DNA of 33,659 nt, taken from contig CAZKUI010000004.1 of assembly GCA_964555905.1 (NCBI GenBank), forward strand, positions 1 to 33,659, in the 5' to 3' direction. Positions 1,101-28,807 of the stretch are shown here, in pieces. The notes beneath the pieces are model-generated. The model made no database searches, was not told the origin of the DNA, and was given only the letters and a program-made list of their open reading frames with translations. How positions within the stretch are numbered: the first letter of the stretch is position 1; every line of letters starts with the position of its first letter. The DNA comes from an uncultured Candidatus Bathyarchaeia archaeon. Its GTDB lineage: Archaea > Thermoproteota > Bathyarchaeia > EX4484-135 > B24-G1. The position numbers and the translations under genes are program-made.

Positions 1101-1195
1101 TTCTAATACCTTCGGTACATATCATTGATTAGCTATGTTCTTATACGGAGAATATCTAAATAAGCGTAATGAATTGGAGGTAACTACGATTGATT

Positions 1196-1906
1196 ATGGA
1201 GAGGGTTGAGACCGGCATTGAGGGTCTTGATAACCTGCTAGGCGGGGGCTTCCCGAAGAATAGAACCGTTCTGGTGGCGGGGGAGACGGGAACCGGGAAG
1301 ACCATATTCTCCCTTCAGTACTTGTACAATGGGGCTAGGATGTATGGGGAAAGCGGGGTCTACGTTACCATAGACGAGAAGCCCGAGCATGTGGTGGAGG
1401 ATGCAGCCTCCCTAGGCTGGGACTTAGAAGCACTCATCGACAATAATCTGCTCCTCATCGTGGAGTTAACCCCCTACTTCACCAGCCTGAGGCGGTTGGA
1501 CGCTAAGGAGATCGTGGAGAACCTGAGAAGCTACATCACGGAGATTCACGCCGCGAGGTTGGTGATAGACCCCGTGGCTCCGCTCATAACCCGGAGTGAG
1601 GAGCCCATAGAACCCGCCTTCGCCCAGGCCTACGTGAAGAACTACCTACGCCGCCTATTCTTCTCCCTAGACGAACTTAACGTAACCACCGTAGCCACCT
1701 CGGAGATTCCAACCGGGACGAGCCAACTCAGCAGGTACGGGGTGGAGGAGTTCTTGGCGTCCGGCGTCATAGTGCTCACGTTGAGGAGGGAGGGTGGAAG
1801 GTTCCATAGGGAGATGTATGTGAGGAAGATGAGGGGTGTGAACCACAGCATGGACATCTATCCGTTCATTATCGAGCAGGGTAGGGGTATAGTAATATCT
1901 ATTTAG
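1196..1906 (+). CDS. KaiC-like (RAD55/RecA-superfamily) single-domain ATPase
   Basis: TGIEGLD, Walker A GETGTGKT, Walker B LVID, GVEEFLASGVIVL, KMRG arginine finger. GGAGGT SD upstream; start is ATG 1196 or TTG 1190. Confidence 0.9.
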   Translation: MERVETGIEGLDNLLGGGFPKNRTVLVAGETGTGKTIFSLQYLYNGARMYGESGVYVTIDEKPEHVVEDAASLGWDLEALIDNNLLLIVELTPYFTSLRRLDAKEIVENLRSYITEIHAARLVIDPVAPLITRSEEPIEPAFAQAYVKNYLRRLFFSLDELNVTTVATSEIPTGTSQLSRYGVEEFLASGVIVLTLRREGGRFHREMYVRKMRGVNHSMDIYPFIIEQGRGIVISI

Positions 1907-1927
1907 AAAATTTTCATATACCCCTAA

Positions 1928-3121
1928 GTGGGGAGTCTAGTGTTGAAATTGTCTACGGGGATACCTGTTCTGGACGACATGCTTGGTGGGGGGGTCACCC
2001 GCGGCTCCAGCACGATCCTCTGGTGCGCCCCCTTCGTAGACGGGGCAGTCCTCCTTCACCAGTTATGTCATGGATGGCTGAAGCGCGGAATGACGGTCAT
2101 CTACTTGGTGAATAACAAGCGACCTGACGTGGTGTTCGAGGATGCTGAGAGGTACGGGTGGCCCCTCAGGGGGTACGCGGAGGAGGGGAAATTCGTCGTC
2201 GTAGACGCCTACACCGCCTTGATGGGTGTGGAGAGCCCCGAGAAGTACGCCGCCTCGGACCCCACGGACATAAATGACGTAAGCGAGGCGGTACTCCAAG
2301 CCATTAAGGACGTGGGGGCTCAGGACGCCCTACTGGCGGTAGACTCCCTCTCCATCATGTTGGACATGTGGGGCGCCGAGGCCGTGGAATGCATTTCTAA
2401 CTGGAATAGGTGGGTTGCCGTGAAGGATTTAGTGGCCATCTACTTATTTAACGAGTGGAATTACGAGAAAGAAACCAAGGATAAATTGTTCAGCTTATGC
2501 GATAACGTAGTATCCCTCCAAGTCATCGAGAAGAATGTAATCACGGGGGACGTGTTCACTGTGAAGAAGGTGAATGGAAGTCCCGTGGAGGAGCGTGTCG
2601 TGCCGTTCAAGTACCTAAAGCCCGGGGGGCTCCACGTCTACGTCCCGAAGATACTCGTCACGGGTCCCTACCACGCTGGTAAGACGACGGTGGTGCACGC
2701 GCTATCCACTAGGGCGGTGAGCGTCCAGAGGCGCGGAACCACGATAGCCCTAGACTTCGGCCACCTAGAATACAAGGGATTCACGGCGGACCTCTTCGGA
2801 ACGATCGGGCAACAGCGGTTCGACCCCATTCTGGAGCAACTGGGCGGGGAGTCCCTAGGCGTCATACTGGTCGTAGACAGCACGAAGCCCGAGACGTTCC
2901 CGAGGGCGTTCGAGATGCTGAGGAAAGCCCGCGTGTACGGCCTCCCCTTGGTGGTCTTCGCAAATAAGCAGGATCTACCGGGGGCTTTAACCCCGGAGGA
3001 TGTGCGCAAAAGCATGCATCTCCCGCCCGACGTGCCAGTGATCGGCACCGTAGCTACGGAGAAAAAGAATATATATGAAGGGTTGGAGAGACTACTTAAA
3101 ATGATATTCAAGGTGGGTTAA
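1928..3121 (+). CDS. Fusion of a degenerate KaiC-like domain and an MglA/CvnD-type small GTPase
   Basis: N-terminal STGIPVLDDMLGGG with the Walker A lost (WCAPFVDG). C-terminal G1 GPYHAGKT, TTIALDFG, FGTIGQQRF, G4 NKQD. Confidence 0.85.
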   Translation: MGSLVLKLSTGIPVLDDMLGGGVTRGSSTILWCAPFVDGAVLLHQLCHGWLKRGMTVIYLVNNKRPDVVFEDAERYGWPLRGYAEEGKFVVVDAYTALMGVESPEKYAASDPTDINDVSEAVLQAIKDVGAQDALLAVDSLSIMLDMWGAEAVECISNWNRWVAVKDLVAIYLFNEWNYEKETKDKLFSLCDNVVSLQVIEKNVITGDVFTVKKVNGSPVEERVVPFKYLKPGGLHVYVPKILVTGPYHAGKTTVVHALSTRAVSVQRRGTTIALDFGHLEYKGFTADLFGTIGQQRFDPILEQLGGESLGVILVVDSTKPETFPRAFEMLRKARVYGLPLVVFANKQDLPGALTPEDVRKSMHLPPDVPVIGTVATEKKNIYEGLERLLKMIFKVG

Positions 3122-6775: not shown

Positions 6776-8017
6776 GTGGAGGGGCGCTACGTCTACCGCA
6801 GGAATCCGGATGAGTGCCGCGAATGCGGCTTCTGCGAGGAGCACATTCTATGCCCCGGAGTTGGTGGGTCCACCATCCACAGGCCGGAGCGGCTATGCGT
6901 TGGTTGTGGGGTGTGCTACGTAGCGTGCCCCTACGAGGCGGTTGAAGCCGTGACGGATGAGACGCCCAGAAGCACCGTTCGCATAGTCGTAGACGGGGAG
7001 GTCTACGAGGTCCCGGAGAGGACGACCGTAAGGCACGCCCTCCAAACCCTTGGATGGGAGTTCACGAAAATTCCGGTGGAGGGTCGCCTCTACGCCCCCT
7101 GCGAGACCGGCGGCTGTTATGCCTGCGCTTTACTCGTAGACGGGGAGCTTAGGCCCTCATGCACCACCCCGGTGAAGGACGGAATGGAGATAAGCACGAA
7201 CTTGGAGGGGTATACACCCCTCAGGAGGGTGTCCGGGTATCAGCCGCATCCGGTTGGCGGCGTTGGAACCCCTTGGTGGATTAAGGGGGAAAGCAGATAC
7301 ATAGAGGTTGCGTGCTTCGCCCACGGCTGCAACCTCAGGTGCCCACAATGCCAGAACTACTCGGTGACGTATGACAATGTAACGCCGCCATCCACGCCGG
7401 TGGAGGCCGCCAGAAGGCTCACGTGGTTGAGGTGGTGGTATAACGTAGACAGGATGGCGATCTCAGGGGGAGAACCCACCCTCAACCGCCCATGGCTGAT
7501 CAAATTTTTCACCGAGCTACGCAGGCTGAACAAAGACCCGAAGGCCAGGCTCCACCTAGACACCAACGCCACGCTCCTCACACCAGACTACATAGACGAA
7601 CTGGTAGAGGCCGGAGTCACCGACATAGGCCCAGACCTAAAGGGCCTACGCGTTGAAACTTTCATGGAGATAACTGGAATCCGAGACAAAGACCTAGCCA
7701 GTAAGTATCTGAAGAACTCCTGGTCGGCCGTAAAGTACATACTGGATGAGTACTACCCAGATAGGGTCTTCCTCGGAATCGGCATACCATATAATAGGTG
7801 TTTCATGAGCCTAGAGGAGCTTCGGGAGATTGGAGACCGAATCGCATCCATGAACCCCCAAGTCCAAGTATGCATCCTAGATTACTTCCCTACATTCAGG
7901 AGACGCGCCATGAGGAAACCGACGGTCGAAGAGATGAGGAAGGCGAGAGAAACACTCCTAGAAGCTGGATTAAAGACGGTAATCGCACAGACTGCCATCG
8001 GTTATTTAGGCCCTTAA
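6776..8017 (+). CDS. Radical SAM protein (PFL-activating-enzyme-like) with N-terminal 2x[4Fe-4S] ferredoxin and [2Fe-2S] domains
   Basis: CRECGFC...CP, CVGCGVCYVACP, CETGGCYAC...SC, CNLRCPQC, SGGEPT, DTN. Confidence 0.85.
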   Translation: MEGRYVYRRNPDECRECGFCEEHILCPGVGGSTIHRPERLCVGCGVCYVACPYEAVEAVTDETPRSTVRIVVDGEVYEVPERTTVRHALQTLGWEFTKIPVEGRLYAPCETGGCYACALLVDGELRPSCTTPVKDGMEISTNLEGYTPLRRVSGYQPHPVGGVGTPWWIKGESRYIEVACFAHGCNLRCPQCQNYSVTYDNVTPPSTPVEAARRLTWLRWWYNVDRMAISGGEPTLNRPWLIKFFTELRRLNKDPKARLHLDTNATLLTPDYIDELVEAGVTDIGPDLKGLRVETFMEITGIRDKDLASKYLKNSWSAVKYILDEYYPDRVFLGIGIPYNRCFMSLEELREIGDRIASMNPQVQVCILDYFPTFRRRAMRKPTVEEMRKARETLLEAGLKTVIAQTAIGYLGP

Positions 8018-8043
8018 ATGGCCTGAACTTAAAGGTCATTTAA
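8014..8043. repeat. Inverted repeat (11-bp arms, 1 mismatch, 8-nt spacer)
   Basis: TTAAATGGCCT-gaacttaa-AGGTCATTTAA overlaps the radical SAM stop codon. Confidence 0.6.
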
Positions 8044-8078
8044 TCTTAAATTATAGTACTTACCATAAAATCCTATCG

Positions 8079-8086
8079 TTTAAATA
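8079..8086 (+). promoter_or_regulatory. Putative TATA box of the ftsZ-like operon
   Basis: TTTAAATA in an AT-rich intergenic region, about 50 nt upstream of GTG 8136, which has a GGAGG SD. Confidence 0.55.
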
Positions 8087-8135
8087 AGAGAAGTTCTCCA
8101 AAATTAGTGAACATAATATACGGAGGGACGAACAA

Positions 8136-9122
8136 GTGGCGTCTATCTTCCCTGCCGGTAAACCGGAGAGGCCGGTAGTAGAGATGGTGGTCGCTGGGTT
8201 CGGAGGCTGCGGGTGCAACACCGTGAGCAACCTCTACGGGAAAAGCTCGGCGCGCCTCATAGCCGTGGATACGGACGCCAGCAACCTCACGGTAACGAAG
8301 GCGGACAAAACCCTACAGGTGGGAGAGGCGCTCACTAAGGGGAGGGGCACGGGAGGCGACATAGGCCTGGGAAGGAAGGTGGCTGAAAGCGATGTAGATA
8401 ACATCCTAGACGTTCTAGGCGCCCCGGACCTCCTCATAGCCGCCGCCGGCCTCGGAGGCGGCGTCGGCTCTGGAACCATGCCGTACGTTCTAGCGGCCTT
8501 CAGGGAGAAGTACCCAGACAAGCTCATCGGAGCGGTGGTCACGGTCCCCTTCAAGTACGAGGGGGTTGAACGCCTAAAGAACACGCAAATCGCCATCAGG
8601 GAGCTACTCGACGCAGCCGACTTCGTCATAGTGAACCTAAACGACCTACTCCTGAAGCGCTACGGGGTTCTGCCGGTTCAGGACGCCATGAAGATCATGG
8701 ACAGCATCCTAGCTAATGGCATATTCGGGTTGGTGGACATGCTGGACCCAACGAACTCCGTCATTAGAACGGACTTCTCCGACTTCACGGCGGTCGTGAG
8801 GAGGAGCGGGGTGAACCTCCTAGGGTACGGCGTGCAGGCCAACGCTAGGAAGGCAACCGAGAGGGCAATCGCTCAGTCCCTGCTGGATGCGGATCTCTCC
8901 ACGGCTAGGGGCGCCCTAGTCTTCGTGAAGGCGCCTCTTGGCGCTAACCTCCAAGAGGCCAGCGAGGCTCCGAGAATCCTGAACGAGTTGTATGGGGTGA
9001 GTAAGGTGACTTGGGGCTTGAAGGTCGCCCCTGACGTTAAGAGGACGCATGTAATGGTGGTGGCTAGTGGTGTCACCTCCAAGACGATTAATGAAACGCT
9101 CAGCGAGGTGGGAGGTGAGTAG
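8136..9122 (+). CDS. FtsZ/tubulin-family GTPase, copy 1 (type A)
   Basis: GFGGCGCN, DTD, GRGTGG, signature GLGGGVGSG, PFKYEGVER, T7 IRTDFSDF. Confidence 0.92.
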   Translation: MASIFPAGKPERPVVEMVVAGFGGCGCNTVSNLYGKSSARLIAVDTDASNLTVTKADKTLQVGEALTKGRGTGGDIGLGRKVAESDVDNILDVLGAPDLLIAAAGLGGGVGSGTMPYVLAAFREKYPDKLIGAVVTVPFKYEGVERLKNTQIAIRELLDAADFVIVNLNDLLLKRYGVLPVQDAMKIMDSILANGIFGLVDMLDPTNSVIRTDFSDFTAVVRRSGVNLLGYGVQANARKATERAIAQSLLDADLSTARGALVFVKAPLGANLQEASEAPRILNELYGVSKVTWGLKVAPDVKRTHVMVVASGVTSKTINETLSEVGGE

Positions 9123-9124
9123 GA

Positions 9125-10141
9125 ATGGCTGGATTAGGGTTTGGAGATGAGGAGCTACTGGCGGAGAGGGAAAGGAGGGCGGCTGTGAAGATAAACGTCG
9201 TCGGCGTTGGAGGCTGCGGAAACAACGCAATAAACAACCTCTACAAGCTGAGGCTCCCGGCGAAGCTCATCGCCATGAACACCGACGCACCAGTCCTCAG
9301 AAAGACGGCGGCCGACAAGAAGGTCCTCCTCAGCGGCCTCACGGAAATCCCGAGGGGAGCCCACGGAGTCCCGGATGTAGGGGCTAAGGCCATGGAGAAC
9401 AGCATCGACGATGCCATAGCCGCCATAGACAAGGACGTAGACGCCGTCATCGGAGTTGCGGGGCTCGGCGGTGGAACCGGAACCGGAGGCCTACCAGTTC
9501 TGTTTAGGGAGTTGGCGGTGAGGAGGAAGGATGCCCTTAGAATCGCCGTGGTGACGCTGCCATTCAAGGAGGAGGGTGACGAGAGGGTCAAGAACGCGCA
9601 GATGGGCCTGCAGGAGCTCCTAGAGTGCTCCGACACGGTGATACCGAACGCCAACGACGTGCTGGCGGAGAAGATGGGAGGCGTCACCATGACGTACGCC
9701 TTCAAGGTCATGGACAAGAAGATAGCCAGAGTGGTGGAGGCGCTGGTGAGGCTTCAGTCGCCGGAGACCGGCCCGGGGATAATAAACGTGGACTTCTCCA
9801 ACGTGAAGAGGATAATGCGAAATGCGCGCGTCTCCTTCGCCGGGGTGGGTGAGGGCAGGAGGGTCTACGACGCCTTCACCAAGGCGTTGAAGGACGACTA
9901 CGCCGAGACGGACCTGTCTACGTCCCACGGGATGGTTCTCTACTACGAGGGCAAGGAGGTCTACCTAGACATGAGCCAGATAAGGAGCACCATCAACTAC
10001 ATAACGAACAACTTCGGGACATCTACCGTGTTCTTCGGCATAAGGCCCACATGGGAACTGGCGGAGGTGAGGGCGTCGCTAATCGCCTGCGGAGTGAGGA
10101 GCAACTACTTAGACGAATTCCTAGGAGGTGAAGTCCCGTGA
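9125..10141 (+). CDS. FtsZ/tubulin-family GTPase, copy 2 (type B)
   Basis: GVGGCGNN, NTD, GLGGGTGTG, PFKEEGDER, T7 INVDFSNV; GGAGGTGA SD. Confidence 0.93.
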   Translation: MAGLGFGDEELLAERERRAAVKINVVGVGGCGNNAINNLYKLRLPAKLIAMNTDAPVLRKTAADKKVLLSGLTEIPRGAHGVPDVGAKAMENSIDDAIAAIDKDVDAVIGVAGLGGGTGTGGLPVLFRELAVRRKDALRIAVVTLPFKEEGDERVKNAQMGLQELLECSDTVIPNANDVLAEKMGGVTMTYAFKVMDKKIARVVEALVRLQSPETGPGIINVDFSNVKRIMRNARVSFAGVGEGRRVYDAFTKALKDDYAETDLSTSHGMVLYYEGKEVYLDMSQIRSTINYITNNFGTSTVFFGIRPTWELAEVRASLIACGVRSNYLDEFLGGEVP

Positions 10142-10395
10142 GCTTCTTCAGGAGGAAGCGCGAGGTAAGCCCGCCGCTGGAGGAGCTGATCAACAAGTTC
10201 CTAGACGAGCACCCCGGGGAGGTGGACCTAGCGTGGCACCTAGAGATGGAGAAGATGCCCTACATACCACCGGTGGTCAAGTTCGCCGACTGGGCCTCGG
10301 AGAAGGGCTACAACTCCAACTATGACCGCAGGGAGGTGGAGGCGGAGATGATGAAGGCTGTCATGCTAAGGGTTACAAAGAGGGGGGTGAGGTGA
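10138..10395 (+). CDS. Small hypothetical protein embedded in the ftsZ-like operon
   Basis: 85 aa. GTGA start/stop overlap with copy 2, GGAGGTGA SD, and a 1-nt gap to copy 3. Confidence 0.8.
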   Translation: MSFFRRKREVSPPLEELINKFLDEHPGEVDLAWHLEMEKMPYIPPVVKFADWASEKGYNSNYDRREVEAEMMKAVMLRVTKRGVR

Positions 10396-10396
10396 A

Positions 10397-11404
10397 GTGG
10401 CAAGCGTGGAGAATGCATACCTAAGGGAGGTCGTGGGTAAGAGGGCCGCCGTTAAGATGGCTGTAGTAGGCATAGGAGGCTGCGGGTGCAACACCATCAC
10501 AAACCTAGAGATGGCCGGAGTGGAGGTCCCCACCATCGCCGTAGACATGGACGCCGTCACGCTCCACAAGACGAGGGCGAAACACAAGGTGCTGATAGGG
10601 GAAACCACCACCCACGGGAGAGGCTCAGGTGGCCTACTCTCCCTGGGAAGGAAGGTCATGTCGGATGAGATAGAGAAGGTGGCAACCCTCATAAAGGACG
10701 CGGAGCTGGTGATCGTGACCGCTGGCCTGGGGGGCGGAACTGGAAGCGGTGGAATAGCCACCTTCGTGGAGTACATGGACGAGAACATGAAGGACAAACT
10801 CCTATGGAGCGTGGTGACGCTTCCCTTCGAATCCGAGGGGACGGAGAGGGCGAAAAACGCCAGCACAGCCCTGAGGGAGGTAATGGAACTCTCGGACATG
10901 ACGATAGTCCACAGCAACGACGTCCTTAAAGCCAAGGCTAGGCACGCATCCATAATCCAAGCGTTCAGGCGCATGGATAAGGTCCTAACAAACGCCATAA
11001 CCGGGCTGCTGAGGCTTCAGGGAGCCGAGCCCGTCCCGGGGCTCATCAGCATAGACTTCTCCAACATCGAGAGGGTCACGAGGGATTCGGGCCTCGGCTT
11101 CGTGGGGGTCGGCGAGGGCAGGGACACCCTAACCGCCTTCGAGAACTCGCTGAAGGAGAACTACGCGGAGGCGGATATAACCAACGCCCAGGGCGCCGTG
11201 GTTCTGGTGGAGGCGAGGAAGGCTGTGCTGAGCACCGGAGGCGTGGAGGAGATACCGAGAATCCTGAAGGAGAACTACGGAATAACCACCATATACTTCG
11301 GGGTGCGCCCGGACTGGACGCTCCACCTGCCGAAGGTGACCCTAGTAACCTCCGGTGTGCGGTCTAAGCTGGTGGACAACTACCTCAGGGGGAGCGAGAA
11401 GTGA
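10397..11404 (+). CDS. FtsZ/tubulin-family GTPase, copy 3 (type B')
   Basis: GIGGCGCN, DMD, GRGSGG, GLGGGTGSG, PFESEGTER, T7 ISIDFSNI. Confidence 0.93.
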   Translation: MASVENAYLREVVGKRAAVKMAVVGIGGCGCNTITNLEMAGVEVPTIAVDMDAVTLHKTRAKHKVLIGETTTHGRGSGGLLSLGRKVMSDEIEKVATLIKDAELVIVTAGLGGGTGSGGIATFVEYMDENMKDKLLWSVVTLPFESEGTERAKNASTALREVMELSDMTIVHSNDVLKAKARHASIIQAFRRMDKVLTNAITGLLRLQGAEPVPGLISIDFSNIERVTRDSGLGFVGVGEGRDTLTAFENSLKENYAEADITNAQGAVVLVEARKAVLSTGGVEEIPRILKENYGITTIYFGVRPDWTLHLPKVTLVTSGVRSKLVDNYLRGSEK

Positions 11405-12366
11405 GCGAGGAGGTCAAGCCGGGCATAGTTGTGGTGGGCGTGGGCGGCTGCGGGTGCAACACGCTGAACAGGCTGTACGAGGTGGGGGTGGAGGTTCCCA
11501 CCATCGCCGTGCACACCGAGGCTGTTCACCTAAAGACGGTGAAGGCGACAGCCACCATACTCGTGGGGCGCACCACCACCGAGGGGCGCGGAAGCGGCGG
11601 AAACCCGATCAAGGGGCAGATGGCCATGAGCGAGGACGTAGACGCCGTCATCTCGGCGATGGGCTCCCCGAACGTGGTCATCGCAACCGGGGGCCTAGGC
11701 GGGGGGACGGCGTCAGGCGGGATTCCGGTCCTCCTAGACGAGGTGAAGAGCCGCTTCCCGGAGGCATTAAGAATCTCCCTAGTAACCATACCCTTCACGT
11801 TCGAGGGAATAAACCGCATGGAAAACGCGAGGATAGGCCTCAGGGCGATTATAGACCGCTCGGACCTCACCATCGTGAACATGAATGACCTACTGCTGAA
11901 GAAGATAGGGGATATACAGGTTCAGTACGCGTTCAAGTTCATGGACAGCATACTGGTGAACACGCTGAAGGGCCTCGTAGACCTCATCACAAAGCCAGCT
12001 GTGGTCAGCATAAGCTTCGCCGACTTCCACTCGCTCGTGAAGGACATGAACCTAGGCATGGTTGGGCATGGAGTCGGAAGGAAGGTGAGGGAGGCGCTGG
12101 AGAACGCCGTGAAGAACAAGCTCGTAGACGCGGAGCTAGAAACCGCCGAGGGCGCCCTACTATACATAACGGCCCCGCCAGCCGTCACCCTGCAGGAGGC
12201 CAGCGAAGCCGCCAGAACCCTAACGGAGCAGTACCACATAGGCCGAGTTTTTTGGGGCCTAAGAACCGAGGAGGGCATTGAACGCCCAACCGTGATGCTG
12301 GCGGCCTCCAACGTCACATCGCCAACCATCAACAACCTCATAGGAACCACCGAGAAGATGTTCTAG
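11401..12366 (+). CDS. FtsZ/tubulin-family GTPase, copy 4 (type A')
   Basis: GVGGCGCN, HTE, GRGSGG, GLGGGTASG, PFTFEGINR, T7 VSISFADF; GTGA overlap with copy 3. Confidence 0.92.
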   Translation: MSEEVKPGIVVVGVGGCGCNTLNRLYEVGVEVPTIAVHTEAVHLKTVKATATILVGRTTTEGRGSGGNPIKGQMAMSEDVDAVISAMGSPNVVIATGGLGGGTASGGIPVLLDEVKSRFPEALRISLVTIPFTFEGINRMENARIGLRAIIDRSDLTIVNMNDLLLKKIGDIQVQYAFKFMDSILVNTLKGLVDLITKPAVVSISFADFHSLVKDMNLGMVGHGVGRKVREALENAVKNKLVDAELETAEGALLYITAPPAVTLQEASEAARTLTEQYHIGRVFWGLRTEEGIERPTVMLAASNVTSPTINNLIGTTEKMF

Positions 12367-12937
12367 CAGCCGACCGAGCGGGGGCGCCTGCGCCCCCGCT
12401 CTCCACAGCCACCACGCTGGGGCCCTCCGCTGGTTCGGCGATTATCTCGCAGTATGGGTCCCCCCTCGCGATGCACCTGACCTCCCTACCAACGATTTTC
12501 ACGTTTCCCCTCCTTTTTCTGCTAGATTCCGCTACGTATTGCAGCACGCCGGCTATGATTCCCCTCCATAGGTGGCAGGCGGGTCTACCGGCGTCGCGTA
12601 GCTCCTCCGCTGGCGAGTGCCGTATTATCACGTCGACCCTGGGCTTATCCATGTTGAGTTCTACGAGGCCGAAGACGCCCCAACCCCTTACGAATCCGGT
12701 GTGTAGGCACGCCTCCATTATGGCTGGCCCCTTCAGCCCCCGGGAGCCCAGGCTCTTAGCGAGGTTGTAGCCGCCTTTGAAGCCAGCGTTGTAGAGGAAT
12801 AGGGCGGCTCCCCTAGCTCCAAAGAATTTTTCGGCTGTCTGTTGGAGTAGCGCCATAAATCCCCTAGTTATTATTAATATCGGGGTTTCGCCCAAAAACA
12901 GCCTTCCAAACTTATCCGAGGAAATCTCGACCTTCAC
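12338..12937 (-). CDS. V4R (4-vinyl reductase-like) ligand-binding domain protein
   Basis: LYNAGFKGG, GWG, PACHLWRGIIAG, EVRCIARGDPYCEI. Confidence 0.85.
   Translation of the reverse strand: MKVEISSDKFGRLFLGETPILIITRGFMALLQQTAEKFFGARGAALFLYNAGFKGGYNLAKSLGSRGLKGPAIMEACLHTGFVRGWGVFGLVELNMDKPRVDVIIRHSPAEELRDAGRPACHLWRGIIAGVLQYVAESSRKRRGNVKIVGREVRCIARGDPYCEIIAEPAEGPSVVAVESGGAGAPARSAARTSSRWFL
12376..12401. terminator. Perfect GC-rich hairpin after the ftsZ-like operon (terminator or 3' stabiliser candidate)
   Basis: GAGCGGGGGCGC-CT-GCGCCCCCGCTC, 9 nt after the stop at 12366. No U-tract follows, so the function is uncertain. Confidence 0.45.
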
Positions 12938-25858: not shown

Positions 25859-26284
25859 ATGCCGAGGGAGTATCCAAGCCAGCCCGTAGTGGCGGTGGCA
25901 GCCGTTATCGTAAAGGGTGGGAAGATGCTCCTGGTGAAGAGGGCGAACGAGCCAGCCCGGGGGAAGTGGAGCATACCCGGTGGTGTCGTTGAACTCGGGG
26001 AGAAGCTCAGAGACGCCCTCATCCGCGAGGTTCGGGAGGAGTGCGGAATAGACATCGAGGTGGACGGCCTCTTTGATGTGGTGGAGGTCATTAACAAGGA
26101 GGGGGGAAGAGTGCGCTTCCACTACGTTATACTAGATTACTTAGCGCACCCCACCGGGGGAGAATTGAGGGCTATGGGGGACGCGGAGGACGCAAAATGG
26201 ATACCCATAAGCGAGGTCGAGAAATACGACATAACCAACAGCCTACGTAGGCTGCTTAAGAGGCGCGCACACGAACTCCTCTAG
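25859..26284 (+). CDS. NUDIX hydrolase (ADP-ribose pyrophosphatase-like)
   Basis: Nudix box GGVVELGEKLRDALIREVREECG. Confidence 0.93.
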   Translation: MPREYPSQPVVAVAAVIVKGGKMLLVKRANEPARGKWSIPGGVVELGEKLRDALIREVREECGIDIEVDGLFDVVEVINKEGGRVRFHYVILDYLAHPTGGELRAMGDAEDAKWIPISEVEKYDITNSLRRLLKRRAHELL

Positions 26285-27731
26285 GGGTTAGGGCGTCCTC
26301 AAAGAACAGCCTCGTCCTACCCATGGTCTGCACATCCAAGCTCCTAATCTTAGCCACTATGGGGAAGTCCCTCACCACGCAACCTAAAATGAGGCAGTAA
26401 TGCGGAGGAAGCTCATTCGCAATGAGCTTAACCGTCTCGGCGTCTACGCGGGCGGCCCTGGACACCATGTCTAAGTCTCGCTGGTTTGTGAAGTTGAAGA
26501 GGAATATGTTGTCTGCCTGCCTGTATATGTTTTCGCTTAGGCTGTCCGGCTGGTTCGTGATGAACGTGGTGAATATTCCGAGGTGCCTCATCCTCGTGAC
26601 GACGTCATCCCAGTAGGTCTCCCTGAAGTATAGGTGGGCCTCCTCCGCGAAGAGGAAGACGGCCTTGAGCTTCCAAGAGGAGAGCAGGTCCACGAGCTTC
26701 CCGAGCACGTACTCAACCACTATCCGCCTATCCAGCGGGGGGAGGTCCCTGAGGTTCATCACCACGACTCCGCCGCCCTCCACCCTGCGGAATACGTCTC
26801 CTAAGTCTAGGGATTCCTCCTCGCGGTCTGTGAAGAAGCCTGAATTCGCTAGGGCGTGGTAGCGGGAGTAGAGGGCGTCCCTCACCAATTCGTTGCACTT
26901 CCAAACCCGAATTGCCTCCCCCAACCCCTCAAGAGTTAGGGCGCCGTGCGCCTCTAGGTGCCTCCAAATCCTCCTAAACTCCCTAGCGGAGGTCCCCGGG
27001 AGACCTAGGGAATAAATCATTATGTTCATGATGATTCTCAGGCTGGTTTGCGCTAGGGTCACCTTAAAGTTGGATGCGGGGGTTAGGACTACGATGCGGT
27101 TGTGGTATTCGTTCTTCCTCCCGTCCAACGTGTAGCCTAGGTTCACGTATTCCCCGTTTAGGTCTAGGACAACCACGGTTGCGCCGTAGTCTACGAGGCC
27201 GAGGGCGAGGAGCTTAGAAAGGTGGGACTTCCCGGTTCCCTTCTTCCCAGTGATTATGTTCAATCTCCCGTCAAGGCTCTTTGCGTCTATGGAGATGTTT
27301 GAGGAGTCCTTCCCCTCGCCCAGCTCTATCGGGAGGTCTCCGGGTATCTCCAGTAGCTCCATGAGCTGTGAGAGCCTTATCCTCTTCACCCTGGAGTGGA
27401 ATCTGGATGGCAGCCACCTCTCCACGGTGAGTTCCCCACCTTTGATGGCGCCGCGAATCTTGCACACGAGTAGGCGGGCGTCCTGGATGCACGCCACGTG
27501 GGATGAAACTCCGAGGGGGTCTACATCCTCGCCCTCCGCCAACTCTTGGGAGGCCAGGTCCCTCAACAGCTCCTCCAGCACGCCGGGGACGTTTGCGAAC
27601 TGAACGTCCACGACTTGGACGATGAGGCTTCTATCCTCATCCTCAACTAGCAGGTAGTCCCCTTTCTCCGCGTCCTCTCCGGGGAAGCTTAGAATTTTTA
27701 GGGTGTCCCCCTCCTTCTTGTAGAGCCTCAT
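26256..27731 (-). CDS. HerA/FtsK-family ATPase (DUF87)
   Basis: N-terminal barrel-like region, GKKGTGKS, DLNGEY, FAEEAH, RMRH, TNQP. Confidence 0.88.
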   Translation of the reverse strand: MRLYKKEGDTLKILSFPGEDAEKGDYLLVEDEDRSLIVQVVDVQFANVPGVLEELLRDLASQELAEGEDVDPLGVSSHVACIQDARLLVCKIRGAIKGGELTVERWLPSRFHSRVKRIRLSQLMELLEIPGDLPIELGEGKDSSNISIDAKSLDGRLNIITGKKGTGKSHLSKLLALGLVDYGATVVVLDLNGEYVNLGYTLDGRKNEYHNRIVVLTPASNFKVTLAQTSLRIIMNIMIYSLGLPGTSAREFRRIWRHLEAHGALTLEGLGEAIRVWKCNELVRDALYSRYHALANSGFFTDREEESLDLGDVFRRVEGGGVVVMNLRDLPPLDRRIVVEYVLGKLVDLLSSWKLKAVFLFAEEAHLYFRETYWDDVVTRMRHLGIFTTFITNQPDSLSENIYRQADNIFLFNFTNQRDLDMVSRAARVDAETVKLIANELPPHYCLILGCVVRDFPIVAKIRSLDVQTMGRTRLFFEDALTPRGVRVRAS

Positions 27732-28807
27732 TAGGATGCCTCCCGGCTGGTGCCGTATGGTCCGAAGAGCATGCGCCTTATGCTCGGTTGAGGAGCCACC
27801 TTAAGCCCGTACCTCCCGGATACGTACCGTTGAATCGCCAGCACCTCGGTTGCGGTGAAAGTTGATAGCACGTGAGCCAGCCTCAACACCTCCGGGTAAC
27901 CCTGAAAAATCAGGTCGTTGTGGAGTAATCTACGCACGGCGTCTATGCACGCCTCACTCGGCAGCTCCCTGTCTACATCAAGGCGGAAGGAGTAGGGCTC
28001 CCAGCCCAGCCGGGCCACGTAGACCCTGCCGAGCAGCTTGATTTGTTTGCTCGTGCTTAGTCCCTGAATTTCTAGGAGGCACGGGGGTTTATGCTCGGCG
28101 GCTAGGCTTGTGATGCTCCTCCCGAGGAGCCTAAGCCTCGTTACCTTCGTGAACGCCAGGATGACGTTCCCCCTATCCCTCGCCGCTCTCAGGAGCTGTG
28201 GGAGGGCGTTCCCCAGTGCATCCCCGGAGCGGACGGTGAGGGAGCCGTCTCGCAGTATGATGGAGTTGGATGTTTGCTGGGAAACGTTCATCTGTAGCAG
28301 GTGGTCAAGCATCCCCGCAAACCTGACTTGGAGGAGGGTTGGGTAGGGGGCGCCAGCCCCTCCTGAGACTCCTAAATACCGCCTCTGCAACCTCCTCAGC
28401 AGTCGCGGTCCATCCTCATCCGTGATGTGGAAGAGTAGAGGCCCAACCCTTAGGTATCGGTATTTGCCGTCCGTTCTCCAAACCACCGCGCCTCTCACGG
28501 CGCATATAACCCCCATGTCGGTCTCCCCAACCTTAACGCTGGATGTGTCTACGCCAATCACGGCGGCATCCTCCTCCAATGGCTCTAGGGGGATGTAGCG
28601 TATGCTCGGCGGCTCGCGAATTGGAAGCGGCGGCTCCCCGTCTACCTCACTTAAAAGGGTTTCAATCGGGTCTGTGGATGGTTGTAGACACCCAGCCACC
28701 CCACTCATGGACTCTAAGCTTAGCTCCACGAGCTTTTCTGGGAGGATGAGCGTGGGGAGGGGAAAGCTATATGTTGGTGTTGGTGCATACTTTAATTGTG
28801 CAGTCAA
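27731..28807 (-). CDS. NurA-family nuclease
   Basis: IGVDTS, LRDGSL, FTK, GYPEVLRLAH; TAATG coupling to herA. Start uncertain. Confidence 0.85.
   Translation of the reverse strand: MTAQLKYAPTPTYSFPLPTLILPEKLVELSLESMSGVAGCLQPSTDPIETLLSEVDGEPPLPIREPPSIRYIPLEPLEEDAAVIGVDTSSVKVGETDMGVICAVRGAVVWRTDGKYRYLRVGPLLFHITDEDGPRLLRRLQRRYLGVSGGAGAPYPTLLQVRFAGMLDHLLQMNVSQQTSNSIILRDGSLTVRSGDALGNALPQLLRAARDRGNVILAFTKVTRLRLLGRSITSLAAEHKPPCLLEIQGLSTSKQIKLLGRVYVARLGWEPYSFRLDVDRELPSEACIDAVRRLLHNDLIFQGYPEVLRLAHVLSTFTATEVLAIQRYVSGRYGLKVAPQPSIRRMLFGPYGTSREAS

Follow-up and report, generated by a model that had tools for sequence, protein, structure and literature searches.

A compact operon of four divergent FtsZ-like paralogs and a small orphan gene in a Bathyarchaeia archaeon: a probable reduced form of a conserved Thermoproteota cluster

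Organization of the locus

The DNA analysed here, henceforth the window, is a stretch of 33,659 nucleotides (contig CAZKUI010000004.1 of assembly GCA_964555905.1) from an uncultured Candidatus Bathyarchaeia archaeon, and it carries four paralogous genes for FtsZ-like proteins, Z-A to Z-D, which together with a small orphan gene, s1, form a translationally compact operon (Table 1). Comparison with related loci indicates that this is a reduced, five-gene form of a cluster conserved in Thermoproteota, and its products probably assemble into a filament of mixed subunits. The first two genes are set 2 nt apart, Z-B and s1 overlap by a GTGA, 1 nt lies between s1 and Z-C, and Z-C and Z-D again share a GTGA; GGAGG-type motifs precede the gene starts, and the spacing at other loci is similar to the gaps and overlaps of 1-4 nt seen here. 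A preliminary description of the window, made from its letters, had reported this arrangement of FtsZ-fold genes around an 85-aa open reading frame (ORF), including the Shine-Dalgarno-like motifs, an upstream TATA element and a downstream hairpin, and each of these was recovered.

Table 1. Features of the operon and of other loci mentioned in the text; positions are those of the window unless another contig or locus is named
Feature	Position	Strand	Details	Basis
TATA-like box	8079..8086	+	TTTAAATA, candidate archaeal promoter, 57 nt before GTG of Z-A	position only
Shine-Dalgarno-like motif	8122..8127	+	GGAGGG, 8 nt before GTG of Z-A	
Z-A	8136..9122	+	FtsZ-like type A, 328 aa, GTG start	ORF scan
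Z-B	9125..10141	+	FtsZ-like type B, 338 aa, ATG start	ORF scan
s1	10138..10395	+	orphan, 85 aa, GTG start	ORF scan
Z-C	10397..11404	+	FtsZ-like type C, 335 aa, GTG start	ORF scan
Z-D	11401..12366	+	FtsZ-like type D, 321 aa, GTG start	ORF scan
GC-rich hairpin	12376..12401	+	11-bp stem, 4-nt loop, 10 nt past Z-D stop	
V4R-domain ORF	12338..12937	minus	convergent; last 29 nt overlap gene D	
KaiC-family gene and KaiC/GTPase fusion gene	1190-3121	+		
HerA-type ATPase gene and 358-aa ORF	26256-28807	minus		
Cdv locus of the window genome	contig C16, L007:1279-3513		ESCRT-III-like (257 aa), CdvA (256 aa), second ESCRT-III-like	
Stand-alone PRC-barrel gene of the window genome	contig C31, L066 about 1200-1541			
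Partial C-C'-D cluster of genome G698	L063, G698:C1, 4145-7044			

At the closest relative of the locus (L005) a comparable TTTATATA stands at -62. The hairpin has a folding energy of -31.1 kcal/mol (z -3.16; equalled by 1 of 200 shuffles), and its reading as a terminator is unproven because it falls within the 3'-terminal part of the V4R ORF that converges on the operon. In L005 the ortholog of that ORF is 8 residues shorter, so that the actual end or beginning of the ORF may lie elsewhere. The operon stretch is also represented in contigs from four further public runs, one of these contigs, of 4909 nt, corresponding to positions 7500-11754 with 13 differences, and the A/B, B/s1/C and C/D junctions are each bridged by separate contigs of other runs. 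Since contigs of independent assemblies cross every junction, misassembly, which had been named as a possible source of the cluster, can be ruled out. Eight runs, each from a different study and all labelled as hydrothermal vent or sediment metagenomes, hold half or more of the words sampled; among 23 runs, no RNA run is listed as holding them.

Divergent, tail-less members of the FtsZ family

All four proteins are matched by PF00091 (E 6.5e-31 to 2.2e-33), and their scores against the TIGR00065 ftsZ model, 179-210 bits, lie below its 295.2-bit cut-off, so that by this profile they fail as canonical FtsZ equivalogs. They are 32-43% identical in pairs, with A and D at 43% and B and C at 41%. 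Structure modelling among the FtsZ-like proteins covered Z-B, whose AlphaFold2 (AF2) model, with a predicted local distance difference test (pLDDT) score of 87.3, finds its best fold match in Methanocaldococcus jannaschii FtsZ (2VAP; template-modelling (TM) score 0.85 over 330 columns); sequence alignments to PDB entries span residues 4-304 of Z-D and 8-327 of Z-B, in keeping with the two-domain fold. Against M. jannaschii FtsZ1, Z-D scores 188 bits and Z-B 165 bits, and the two canonical paralogs of the same class score 330 and 270.

The first loop, T1, reads GGCGCN or GGCGNN in the window proteins and GVGQAGG in a CetZ of the same class, and T4 reads GGGVGSG, GGGTGTG, GGGTGSG or GGGTASG; in an alignment of 43 sequences both nucleotide-binding motifs are kept nearly throughout. 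Past the last core strand the window proteins have tails of 14-16 residues (15 in Z-A). Across the operon family and its sister group, described below, tails measure 7-18 residues, versus 41-42 in the FtsZ1-like proteins of the class. A CetZ identity was considered and rejected, given the FtsZ-type T1 loop, the weak similarity of Z-D to CetZ 3ZID (E 2e-14, versus 1.8e-54 with M. jannaschii FtsZ1) and the position of the class's CetZ, L070, in the outgroup of the tree. The initial characterization of the four as divergent and tail-less, with an FtsZ-type rather than CetZ-type GGxGxN loop, thus agrees with these comparisons.

A cluster conserved in two forms

Pattern scans and genome searches recovered related loci, which take two forms: the five-gene A-B-s1-C-D, and a seven-gene A-B-s1-C-s2-C'-D, in which C' is a fifth FtsZ-like gene and s2, between C and C', encodes a PRC barrel of 79-85 aa (PF05239, 34-37 bits, cut-off 21.2). 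No PRC gene lies within the window operon. The same gene order was found in QMYG01000003 (Candidatus Bathyarchaeota; D 89% identical), QMSP01000020 (Thermoprotei archaeon; 60%), CBDUKN010000025 (Thermoprotei; 66%), QMSB01 (Thermoprotei; split over two contigs), JAVCBY010000076 (Thermoproteota), CAZFIJ010000048 (titled Nitrososphaerota), JAVQRZ010000234 (Candidatus Korarchaeum sp.; partial contig) and NJEE01000072 (Candidatus Bathyarchaeota), and every complete locus keeps all types in a fixed order. A metagenome scan seeded by an s1 alignment gave 16 loci, with B upstream and C downstream in all 16 where the contig reaches. The operon flanks vary between loci, the V4R gene being common to the window and its closest relative only. 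Named members of the family are annotated as "hypothetical protein" in metagenome-assembled genomes.

The distribution is sparse. When 401 genomes of the class were sampled, the matches listed included four tandem copies only in the window genome (G000) and in G001, a genome of the same family titled Candidatus Bathyarchaeota archaeon; in a 401-genome sample of the phylum, a D-type match at E <= 1e-58 was obtained in four genomes, the window genome included. In the class of the genome labelled Korarchaeum the cluster, as judged by a D-type match, is present in 9 of 40 genomes. The operon clade holds 9 of the 150 best matches to D among 1.84 billion representative proteins, and a scan with the Korarchaeum-type D alone returned three near-identical records only. 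Two genomes, G698 and G747 (contig C50 in the latter), have, besides the full seven-gene form, a second, partial cluster C-C'-D devoid of A, B, s1 and the PRC gene.

Phylogeny and selection

The principal tree was computed with IQ-TREE from 64 rows and 326 columns under LG+C20 with posterior mean site frequencies (PMSF), 17 rows having been dropped beforehand, and was rooted with two CetZ sequences (L070 among them, with a match to 4B46 at E 7e-104) and two tubulin-like sequences of 450 aa; support is given as ultrafast bootstrap/SH-aLRT. Types A (100/99), D (99/95), B (100/100) and C' (100/99) form clades; A joins D (99/98), B joins C and C' (99/98), and the family as a whole is recovered at 98/89. 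Together with its sister group it is split from all canonical FtsZ representatives at 100/99, the canonical clade itself being weakly supported (83/41). FastTree with 215 rows and a quick IQ-TREE run with 76 rows gave the same picture. Joining the operon family with the FtsZ1-like proteins of the class was rejected by the approximately unbiased (AU) test (delta lnL 110.7, p-AU 2.9e-5), the tested group having been named after the tree was seen. The operon paralogs are thus placed by these sequence comparisons in one clade outside canonical FtsZ, and the nesting within FtsZ1 or FtsZ2 that would mark them as ordinary copies of either was not seen. The Korarchaeum-type orthologs, 41-52% identical to the window proteins, fall with them type by type.

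The ratio of nonsynonymous to synonymous substitution rates (dN/dS) between the window and L005 is 0.065-0.078 for A to D and 0.17 for s1, at dS values of 0.9-1.7 that approach saturation; between the less distant L043 and L044 (dS 0.19-0.56) it is 0.012-0.052 for the FtsZ-like genes, 0.090 for s1 and 0.083 for the PRC gene. Such low ratios suggest that the duplications are old and that each type has been kept, with none decaying; the earlier alternative of recent duplicates under relaxed selection does not fit the range of 0.01-0.17, which reflects purifying selection.

Several other members of the superfamily came to light in these searches. The sister of the operon family, here termed the X group, consists of short FtsZ-like proteins of 316-347 aa, mostly tail-less and encoded at dispersed rather than tandem positions: L010, L011, L061 and L073 (genomes G050 and G070 of the same class, family f25), and P0011, P0043, P0058 and P0098; the three placed FtsZ-like proteins of G070 all belong to it. 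L068, L069 and L072 (G027, G020 and G019, of the same class) are tubulin-superfamily proteins of 445-463 aa with a GLGHCGG first loop, distant from both FtsZ (74 bits to M. jannaschii FtsZ1) and CetZ; this group, from Bathyarchaeia-type genomes, is unplaced. P0008 (744 aa) and P0010 (826 aa), from metagenome sources, are single polypeptides in which a long linker connects two complete FtsZ domains of the canonical type. These two and P0007 were considered as a Rosetta-stone clue to the operon and set aside, as their domains are of the canonical type, their high score comes from adding up two such domains, and the tree puts them within the canonical clade.

Type-specific changes in the T7 loop

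In an FtsZ polymer each GTPase site is complete only once the T7 loop of the adjoining subunit is in place. Its canonical form, used here as the reference, is N-x-D-x-x-D, whose key residues we take to be N207, D209 and D212 in E. coli numbering. In the window Z-A keeps both aspartates (RTDFSD, residues 211-216), Z-B (NVDFSN, 221-226) and Z-C (SIDFSN, 218-223) have asparagine in place of the second, and Z-D (SISFAD, 203-208) has lost the first and kept the second. The same pattern runs through the orthologs: type A has [R/H]xDFxD, with both aspartates in 7 of 7 sequences, and type D has [S/G]I[S/G][FY]xD, with the first lost and the second kept in 8 of 8; the second is lost in five of six type B loops (NVDFSN), replaced by N, H or T in all six of type C and by S, V or M in all four of type C'. 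Neither aspartate is lost in the X group (6/6) or in canonical FtsZ (6/6). Types B and D also differ elsewhere, B having RGA[HQRS]G (RGAHG in Z-B) instead of GxGAGG in T3, and D having loops of its own in T2 (HTE) and T4 (GGGTASG). The T7 split coincides with the division of the tree into A+D and B+C+C', and in gene order it reads competent-deficient-s1-deficient-competent.

The small partner s1 and the PRC-barrel gene

No Pfam or NCBIfam family matches s1, which was found solely inside this operon; a direct homologue search returned three close protein clusters only, and further relatives were taken from the loci themselves. Its orthologs, of 78-104 aa, share three parts at eight loci: an N-terminus of the form M-x-[FL]-x-[RK][RK]K (the basic MSFFRRKRE in the window), then a linker of 0-25 residues rich in Pro and Glu, and lastly a conserved domain, L..FLDE..GEV.LAW..E.EKMPY.PPV. 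An AF2 model from ten sequences consists of four helices behind a disordered N-terminus (pLDDT 80.4; predicted TM-score (pTM) 0.66). Foldseek found no PDB match to it below E 4, the ESM Atlas gave no feature match and only a weak, below-bar likeness to the GatB/YqeY helical domain (TM 0.54-0.57), and the domain and fold searches yielded no helix-turn-helix match. Prediction of a three-chain complex of B, C and s1, each with its own alignment, scored 0.00, which speaks neither for nor against binding.

A basic peptide followed by a flexible linker and a globular domain is a layout that resembles the membrane tethers SepF and ZipA. Because of this layout, together with the missing FtsZ tails and the missing SepF, our best guess by analogy is that s1 is a candidate adaptor or anchor of the filament. 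As an observation apart from the operon, the window genome also encodes a stand-alone PRC-barrel protein with a C-terminal zinc ribbon (CPNCG...CIKCG) on contig C31, which resembles the PRC protein embedded in the seven-gene form.

Genome setting and co-occurrence with canonical FtsZ, SepF and Cdv

The window is contig C4 of a genome of 1.13 Mb in 101 contigs, 88% complete, in which the four operon genes are the only matches to the tubulin superfamily and SepF was not found. A Cdv locus is present. CdvA carries a PRC barrel, and that of this genome combines one with the PF18822 coiled coil (35.4 bits, cut-off 30); the locus is preceded by genes for a winged-helix regulator and a small membrane protein. 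None of secE, nusG, rpl11 and sepF, the usual neighbours of archaeal ftsZ, occurs among the 28 flanking ORFs scanned in the 33.7-kb window. The absence of these neighbours had been pointed out initially, with the suggestion to look for canonical ftsZ, sepF or cdv elsewhere in the genome; the outcome is that a CdvA locus is present and that neither a canonical FtsZ nor SepF was found there.

Nine carrier genomes were compared. Five have FtsZ-like genes of the operon family only. The window genome (88% complete) and G001 (58%) lack a SepF over the cut-off (G001 has an 18-bit sub-threshold match) and have CdvA; in G693 (98%) SepF was not found and CdvA scores 30.7 bits; in G698 (99%) neither SepF nor CdvA was found, and in G747 SepF was not found, these last two being the genomes with the additional partial cluster. 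The other four keep canonical-length FtsZ: G569 (90%, with 7% contamination) has one placed in the FtsZ1-like clade, along with two SepF and a sub-threshold CdvA match of 26.9 bits, and G744, G745 and G746 have SepF and one or two higher-scoring PF00091 ORFs of 386-448 aa, whose canonical status is by score and ORF length alone. SepF over the cut-off is thus present in 4 of 4 carriers with canonical-length FtsZ and in 0 of 5 without, a pattern indicating that SepF follows canonical FtsZ and not the operon. A search of five other carriers with the CdvB-like protein of the window genome as query returned nothing and is uninformative; the Pfam Snf7 model is insensitive to archaeal CdvB.

The immediate flanks of the operon in the window are radical SAM, PLD, V4R and HAD genes, and the other genes of the window are of a housekeeping kind (KaiC, NucS, PLD, radical SAM, V4R, HAD, transporters, PurA, GlmS and a GatE-like gene). 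The GC content of the operon matches that of its surroundings. Two further gene pairs may be recorded. A gene for a 238-aa KaiC-family ATPase (PF06745, E 5.7e-71) is directly followed by one for a 397-aa protein in which a KaiC-like domain is fused to a small GTPase domain of the Arf/Ras type (PF00025, E 1.9e-16). In L043 and L044 the FtsZ operon is followed, at a distance of about 3.5 kb, by a gene for a 201-aa relative of this fusion (29% identity, E about 1e-14). On the opposite strand a gene for a HerA-type ATPase (DUF87) is followed by a 358-aa ORF devoid of a Pfam match, and the two could be a HerA-NurA-like pair.

A candidate mixed-subunit filament and its alternatives

Taken together, the fixed gene order, the old and separately conserved subunit types and the T7 pattern lead us to favour, with moderate confidence, the view that the cluster specifies a SepF-independent FtsZ-like filament of mixed subunits with a dedicated adaptor. 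In such a system the four ancient, non-interchangeable paralogs would be made together from one transcript and would co-assemble into one polymer, with the complementary T7 losses marking subunits built for fixed neighbours within it. Types A and D, which retain the second, water-activating aspartate, would trigger GTP hydrolysis in the subunit below, and the interface below B, C and C', where that residue is lost, would hold its GTP. This hydrolysis asymmetry would follow the same logic as the heterodimers of alpha/beta-tubulin and BtubA/B; beta-tubulin is without the equivalent acidic residue, and the GTP at the intradimer site stays unhydrolysed. Translational coupling had suggested from the outset a stoichiometric multi-subunit filament; that proposal remains plausible and gains support from the type-specific split of the T7 aspartates, with co-assembly itself still the conjectural part of it. 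s1 would do the adaptor or anchoring job of the tail and SepF. The filament would act on the membrane, and its most likely role is one associated with division, in the window genome alongside Cdv, a role in cell shape being nearly as likely; on the initial proposal of a role other than canonical division the evidence is divided, since the PRC barrel of the long form and the five carriers without canonical FtsZ and SepF point towards division, and the Cdv locus of the window genome and the four carriers with canonical-length FtsZ and SepF point away from it. We would regard as doubtful a stronger version, in which the products form an obligate heteropolymer with a tubulin-like logic evolved independently, s1 has replaced tail and SepF, and the filament is the sole or main membrane-remodelling cytoskeleton where FtsZ1/FtsZ2 and SepF are lacking, as in G698, in which CdvA was not found either.

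Several observations weigh against the favoured view. The T1 and T4 motifs are kept in all four proteins, so each could polymerise alone, and the partial C-C'-D clusters imply that not every subunit type is needed everywhere; one B ortholog, L046_B, retains the second T7 aspartate. The argument for co-assembly is drawn from sequence, and the role given to the T7 aspartate is the one described for E. coli FtsZ and tubulin. Type C is not monophyletic, because of the very long branches L006_C and L046_C, and the canonical rows of the tree are unnamed representatives rather than named FtsZ1 and FtsZ2 references. In s1 the N-terminus is not long enough to qualify as a membrane-targeting helix, and the searches made gave no significant match to the s1 fold. 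A role in division, in particular, sits uneasily with the Cdv locus of the window genome, with the four carriers that keep canonical-length FtsZ and SepF, and with the diffuse distribution of a Nitrosopumilus FtsZ-like protein present beside Cdv, as given in the available text of PMC7613921.

Other explanations deserve comparison with the mixed-subunit filament. One is that a derived FtsZ system has replaced FtsZ1/FtsZ2-SepF as the main cytokinetic ring, the place of SepF and CdpB being taken by s1 and, in the long form, by the PRC barrel. The five carriers in which neither canonical FtsZ nor SepF was found, including the nearly complete G693 and G698, and the PRC-barrel gene within the long form would fit it, but CdvA is present in the window genome, G001 and G693, Cdv drives division in the TACK archaea that have been studied, and G569, G744, G745 and G746, as classed by score and ORF length, keep canonical-length FtsZ with SepF; we consider it unlikely. 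We are similarly sceptical of a cytoskeleton for cell shape or elongation that is unrelated to division, with a role like that of CetZ. Subunits without a tail have no access to the usual anchor of the divisome, the operon coexists with Cdv in the window genome and with FtsZ and SepF in Korarchaeum-type genomes, and Candidatus Korarchaeum cryptofilum is described in PMC7613921, in its available part, as a long thin filament; yet Korarchaeum is the only carrier whose shape is known, the proteins have no sequence affinity to CetZ, and the embedded PRC barrel suggests partners of the division type.

That the paralogs are independent or redundant, each forming its own homopolymer and sharing an operon for co-regulation only, strikes us as improbable. 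It would account for the GTP-binding motifs kept in all four and for the partial C-C'-D clusters, and Haloferax FtsZ1 and FtsZ2 offer a precedent of paralogs with distinct roles, according to the available text of 10.1101/2020.06.04.133736; on the other side stand the retention of every type in fixed order at all complete loci, the strong purifying selection on each type, and T7 losses that are type-specific and complementary. Least credible, in our judgement, is a DNA-segregation module of a mobile element resembling TubZ: the flanks are unconserved save for V4R in the closest relative, the distribution is patchy (4 of 401 genomes of the phylum) and second, partial copies occur, but no integrase, replication gene or DNA-binding adaptor adjoins the operon, its flanks are housekeeping genes, its GC content is that of its surroundings, its closest structures are FtsZ and not TubZ or RepX, and s1 shows no helix-turn-helix match.

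The operon bears on the transition from a homopolymeric FtsZ-like ancestor to heterodimeric tubulin, which is unsettled and for which natural intermediates are scarce: its four or five co-encoded paralogs, with their complementary losses in the T7 loop, offer a direct and testable case of division of labour among subunits within the FtsZ branch of the superfamily. A second point of interest is how division or shape is organised in those TACK archaea that lack FtsZ1/FtsZ2 and SepF, and the PRC-barrel proteins lately linked to division in archaea are set in a wider context. The cluster has been on record since 2008; no experimental work on it was found in the literature.

Relationship to known systems

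The preliminary description had called the system undescribed, which does not stand. A seven-gene cluster with five ftsZ paralogs and a PRC-barrel gene was reported for Candidatus Korarchaeum by Elkins et al. in 2008, as cited in 10.1101/2023.03.28.534543, where, in the text available, it is called the first hint of PRC-barrel proteins in division. That description fits A-B-s1-C-PRC-C'-D, the arrangement of a locus labelled Candidatus Korarchaeum sp. and of near-identical loci (L042, L043 and L044), which have the same orthologs in the same order. As an orthologous cluster was reported in 2008, the window carries a reduced variant of a known, uncharacterised one, and the caveat entered at the start, that expanded ftsZ sets in Korarchaeota should be compared, was well placed. 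The window differs in being without the PRC-barrel gene and C' and in coming from a different class; Korarchaeum-type genomes have canonical FtsZ and SepF, and in the window genome neither was found. No functional study of the cluster was found in the literature, and the supplementary trees of related papers may already show the family. Indeed, divergent FtsZs outside FtsZ1 and FtsZ2 are reported from Bathyarchaeia, Korarchaeia, Nitrososphaeria/"Crenarchaeota" and the Culexarchaeia clade (PMC9723716, PMC9871819), and the operon family is very probably among these non-canonical TACK proteins; an operon, subunit types or a small partner are not described in the available parts of these two papers. 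As far as could be seen, four points are new: the occurrence of the cluster outside Korarchaeia, the division of the subunits into classes whose T7 losses complement one another, the partner s1 and the distribution of SepF among the carriers.

With the divisome of FtsZ1/FtsZ2, SepF and CdpB the cluster shares the FtsZ fold, the GTP-binding motifs and, in its long form, a PRC-barrel partner; it differs in its tail-less subunits, altered T7 loops, position outside the canonical clade and four or five co-encoded types. In Haloferax the PRC-barrel proteins CdpB1-3 act in FtsZ-based division (PMC10120694); the available text of that paper mentions one genome only with a PRC gene beside sepF/ftsZ and does not discuss the Korarchaeum-type cluster. 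CetZ, as an archaeal tubulin-superfamily cytoskeleton outside division, is a possible functional analogue, different in its GQ-type first loop and distant sequence, and the CetZ of the class served as outgroup. The truncated FtsZ paralogs of Hyphomicrobiales and Agrobacterium, as far as the partly available source goes, are likewise tail-less and co-polymerise with another FtsZ; they are bacterial, occur beside a full-length FtsZ and are not part of a multi-type operon.

Alpha/beta-tubulin and BtubA/B resemble the cluster in being co-encoded paralogs, one class of which is without the hydrolysis-activating T7 residue. The operon proteins differ from them in being of the FtsZ type and in having four or five subunit types rather than two, and their pairing into heterodimers is conjectural. 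The BtubA/B operon includes a small accessory gene as well, btubC, according to the available text of PMC9871819.

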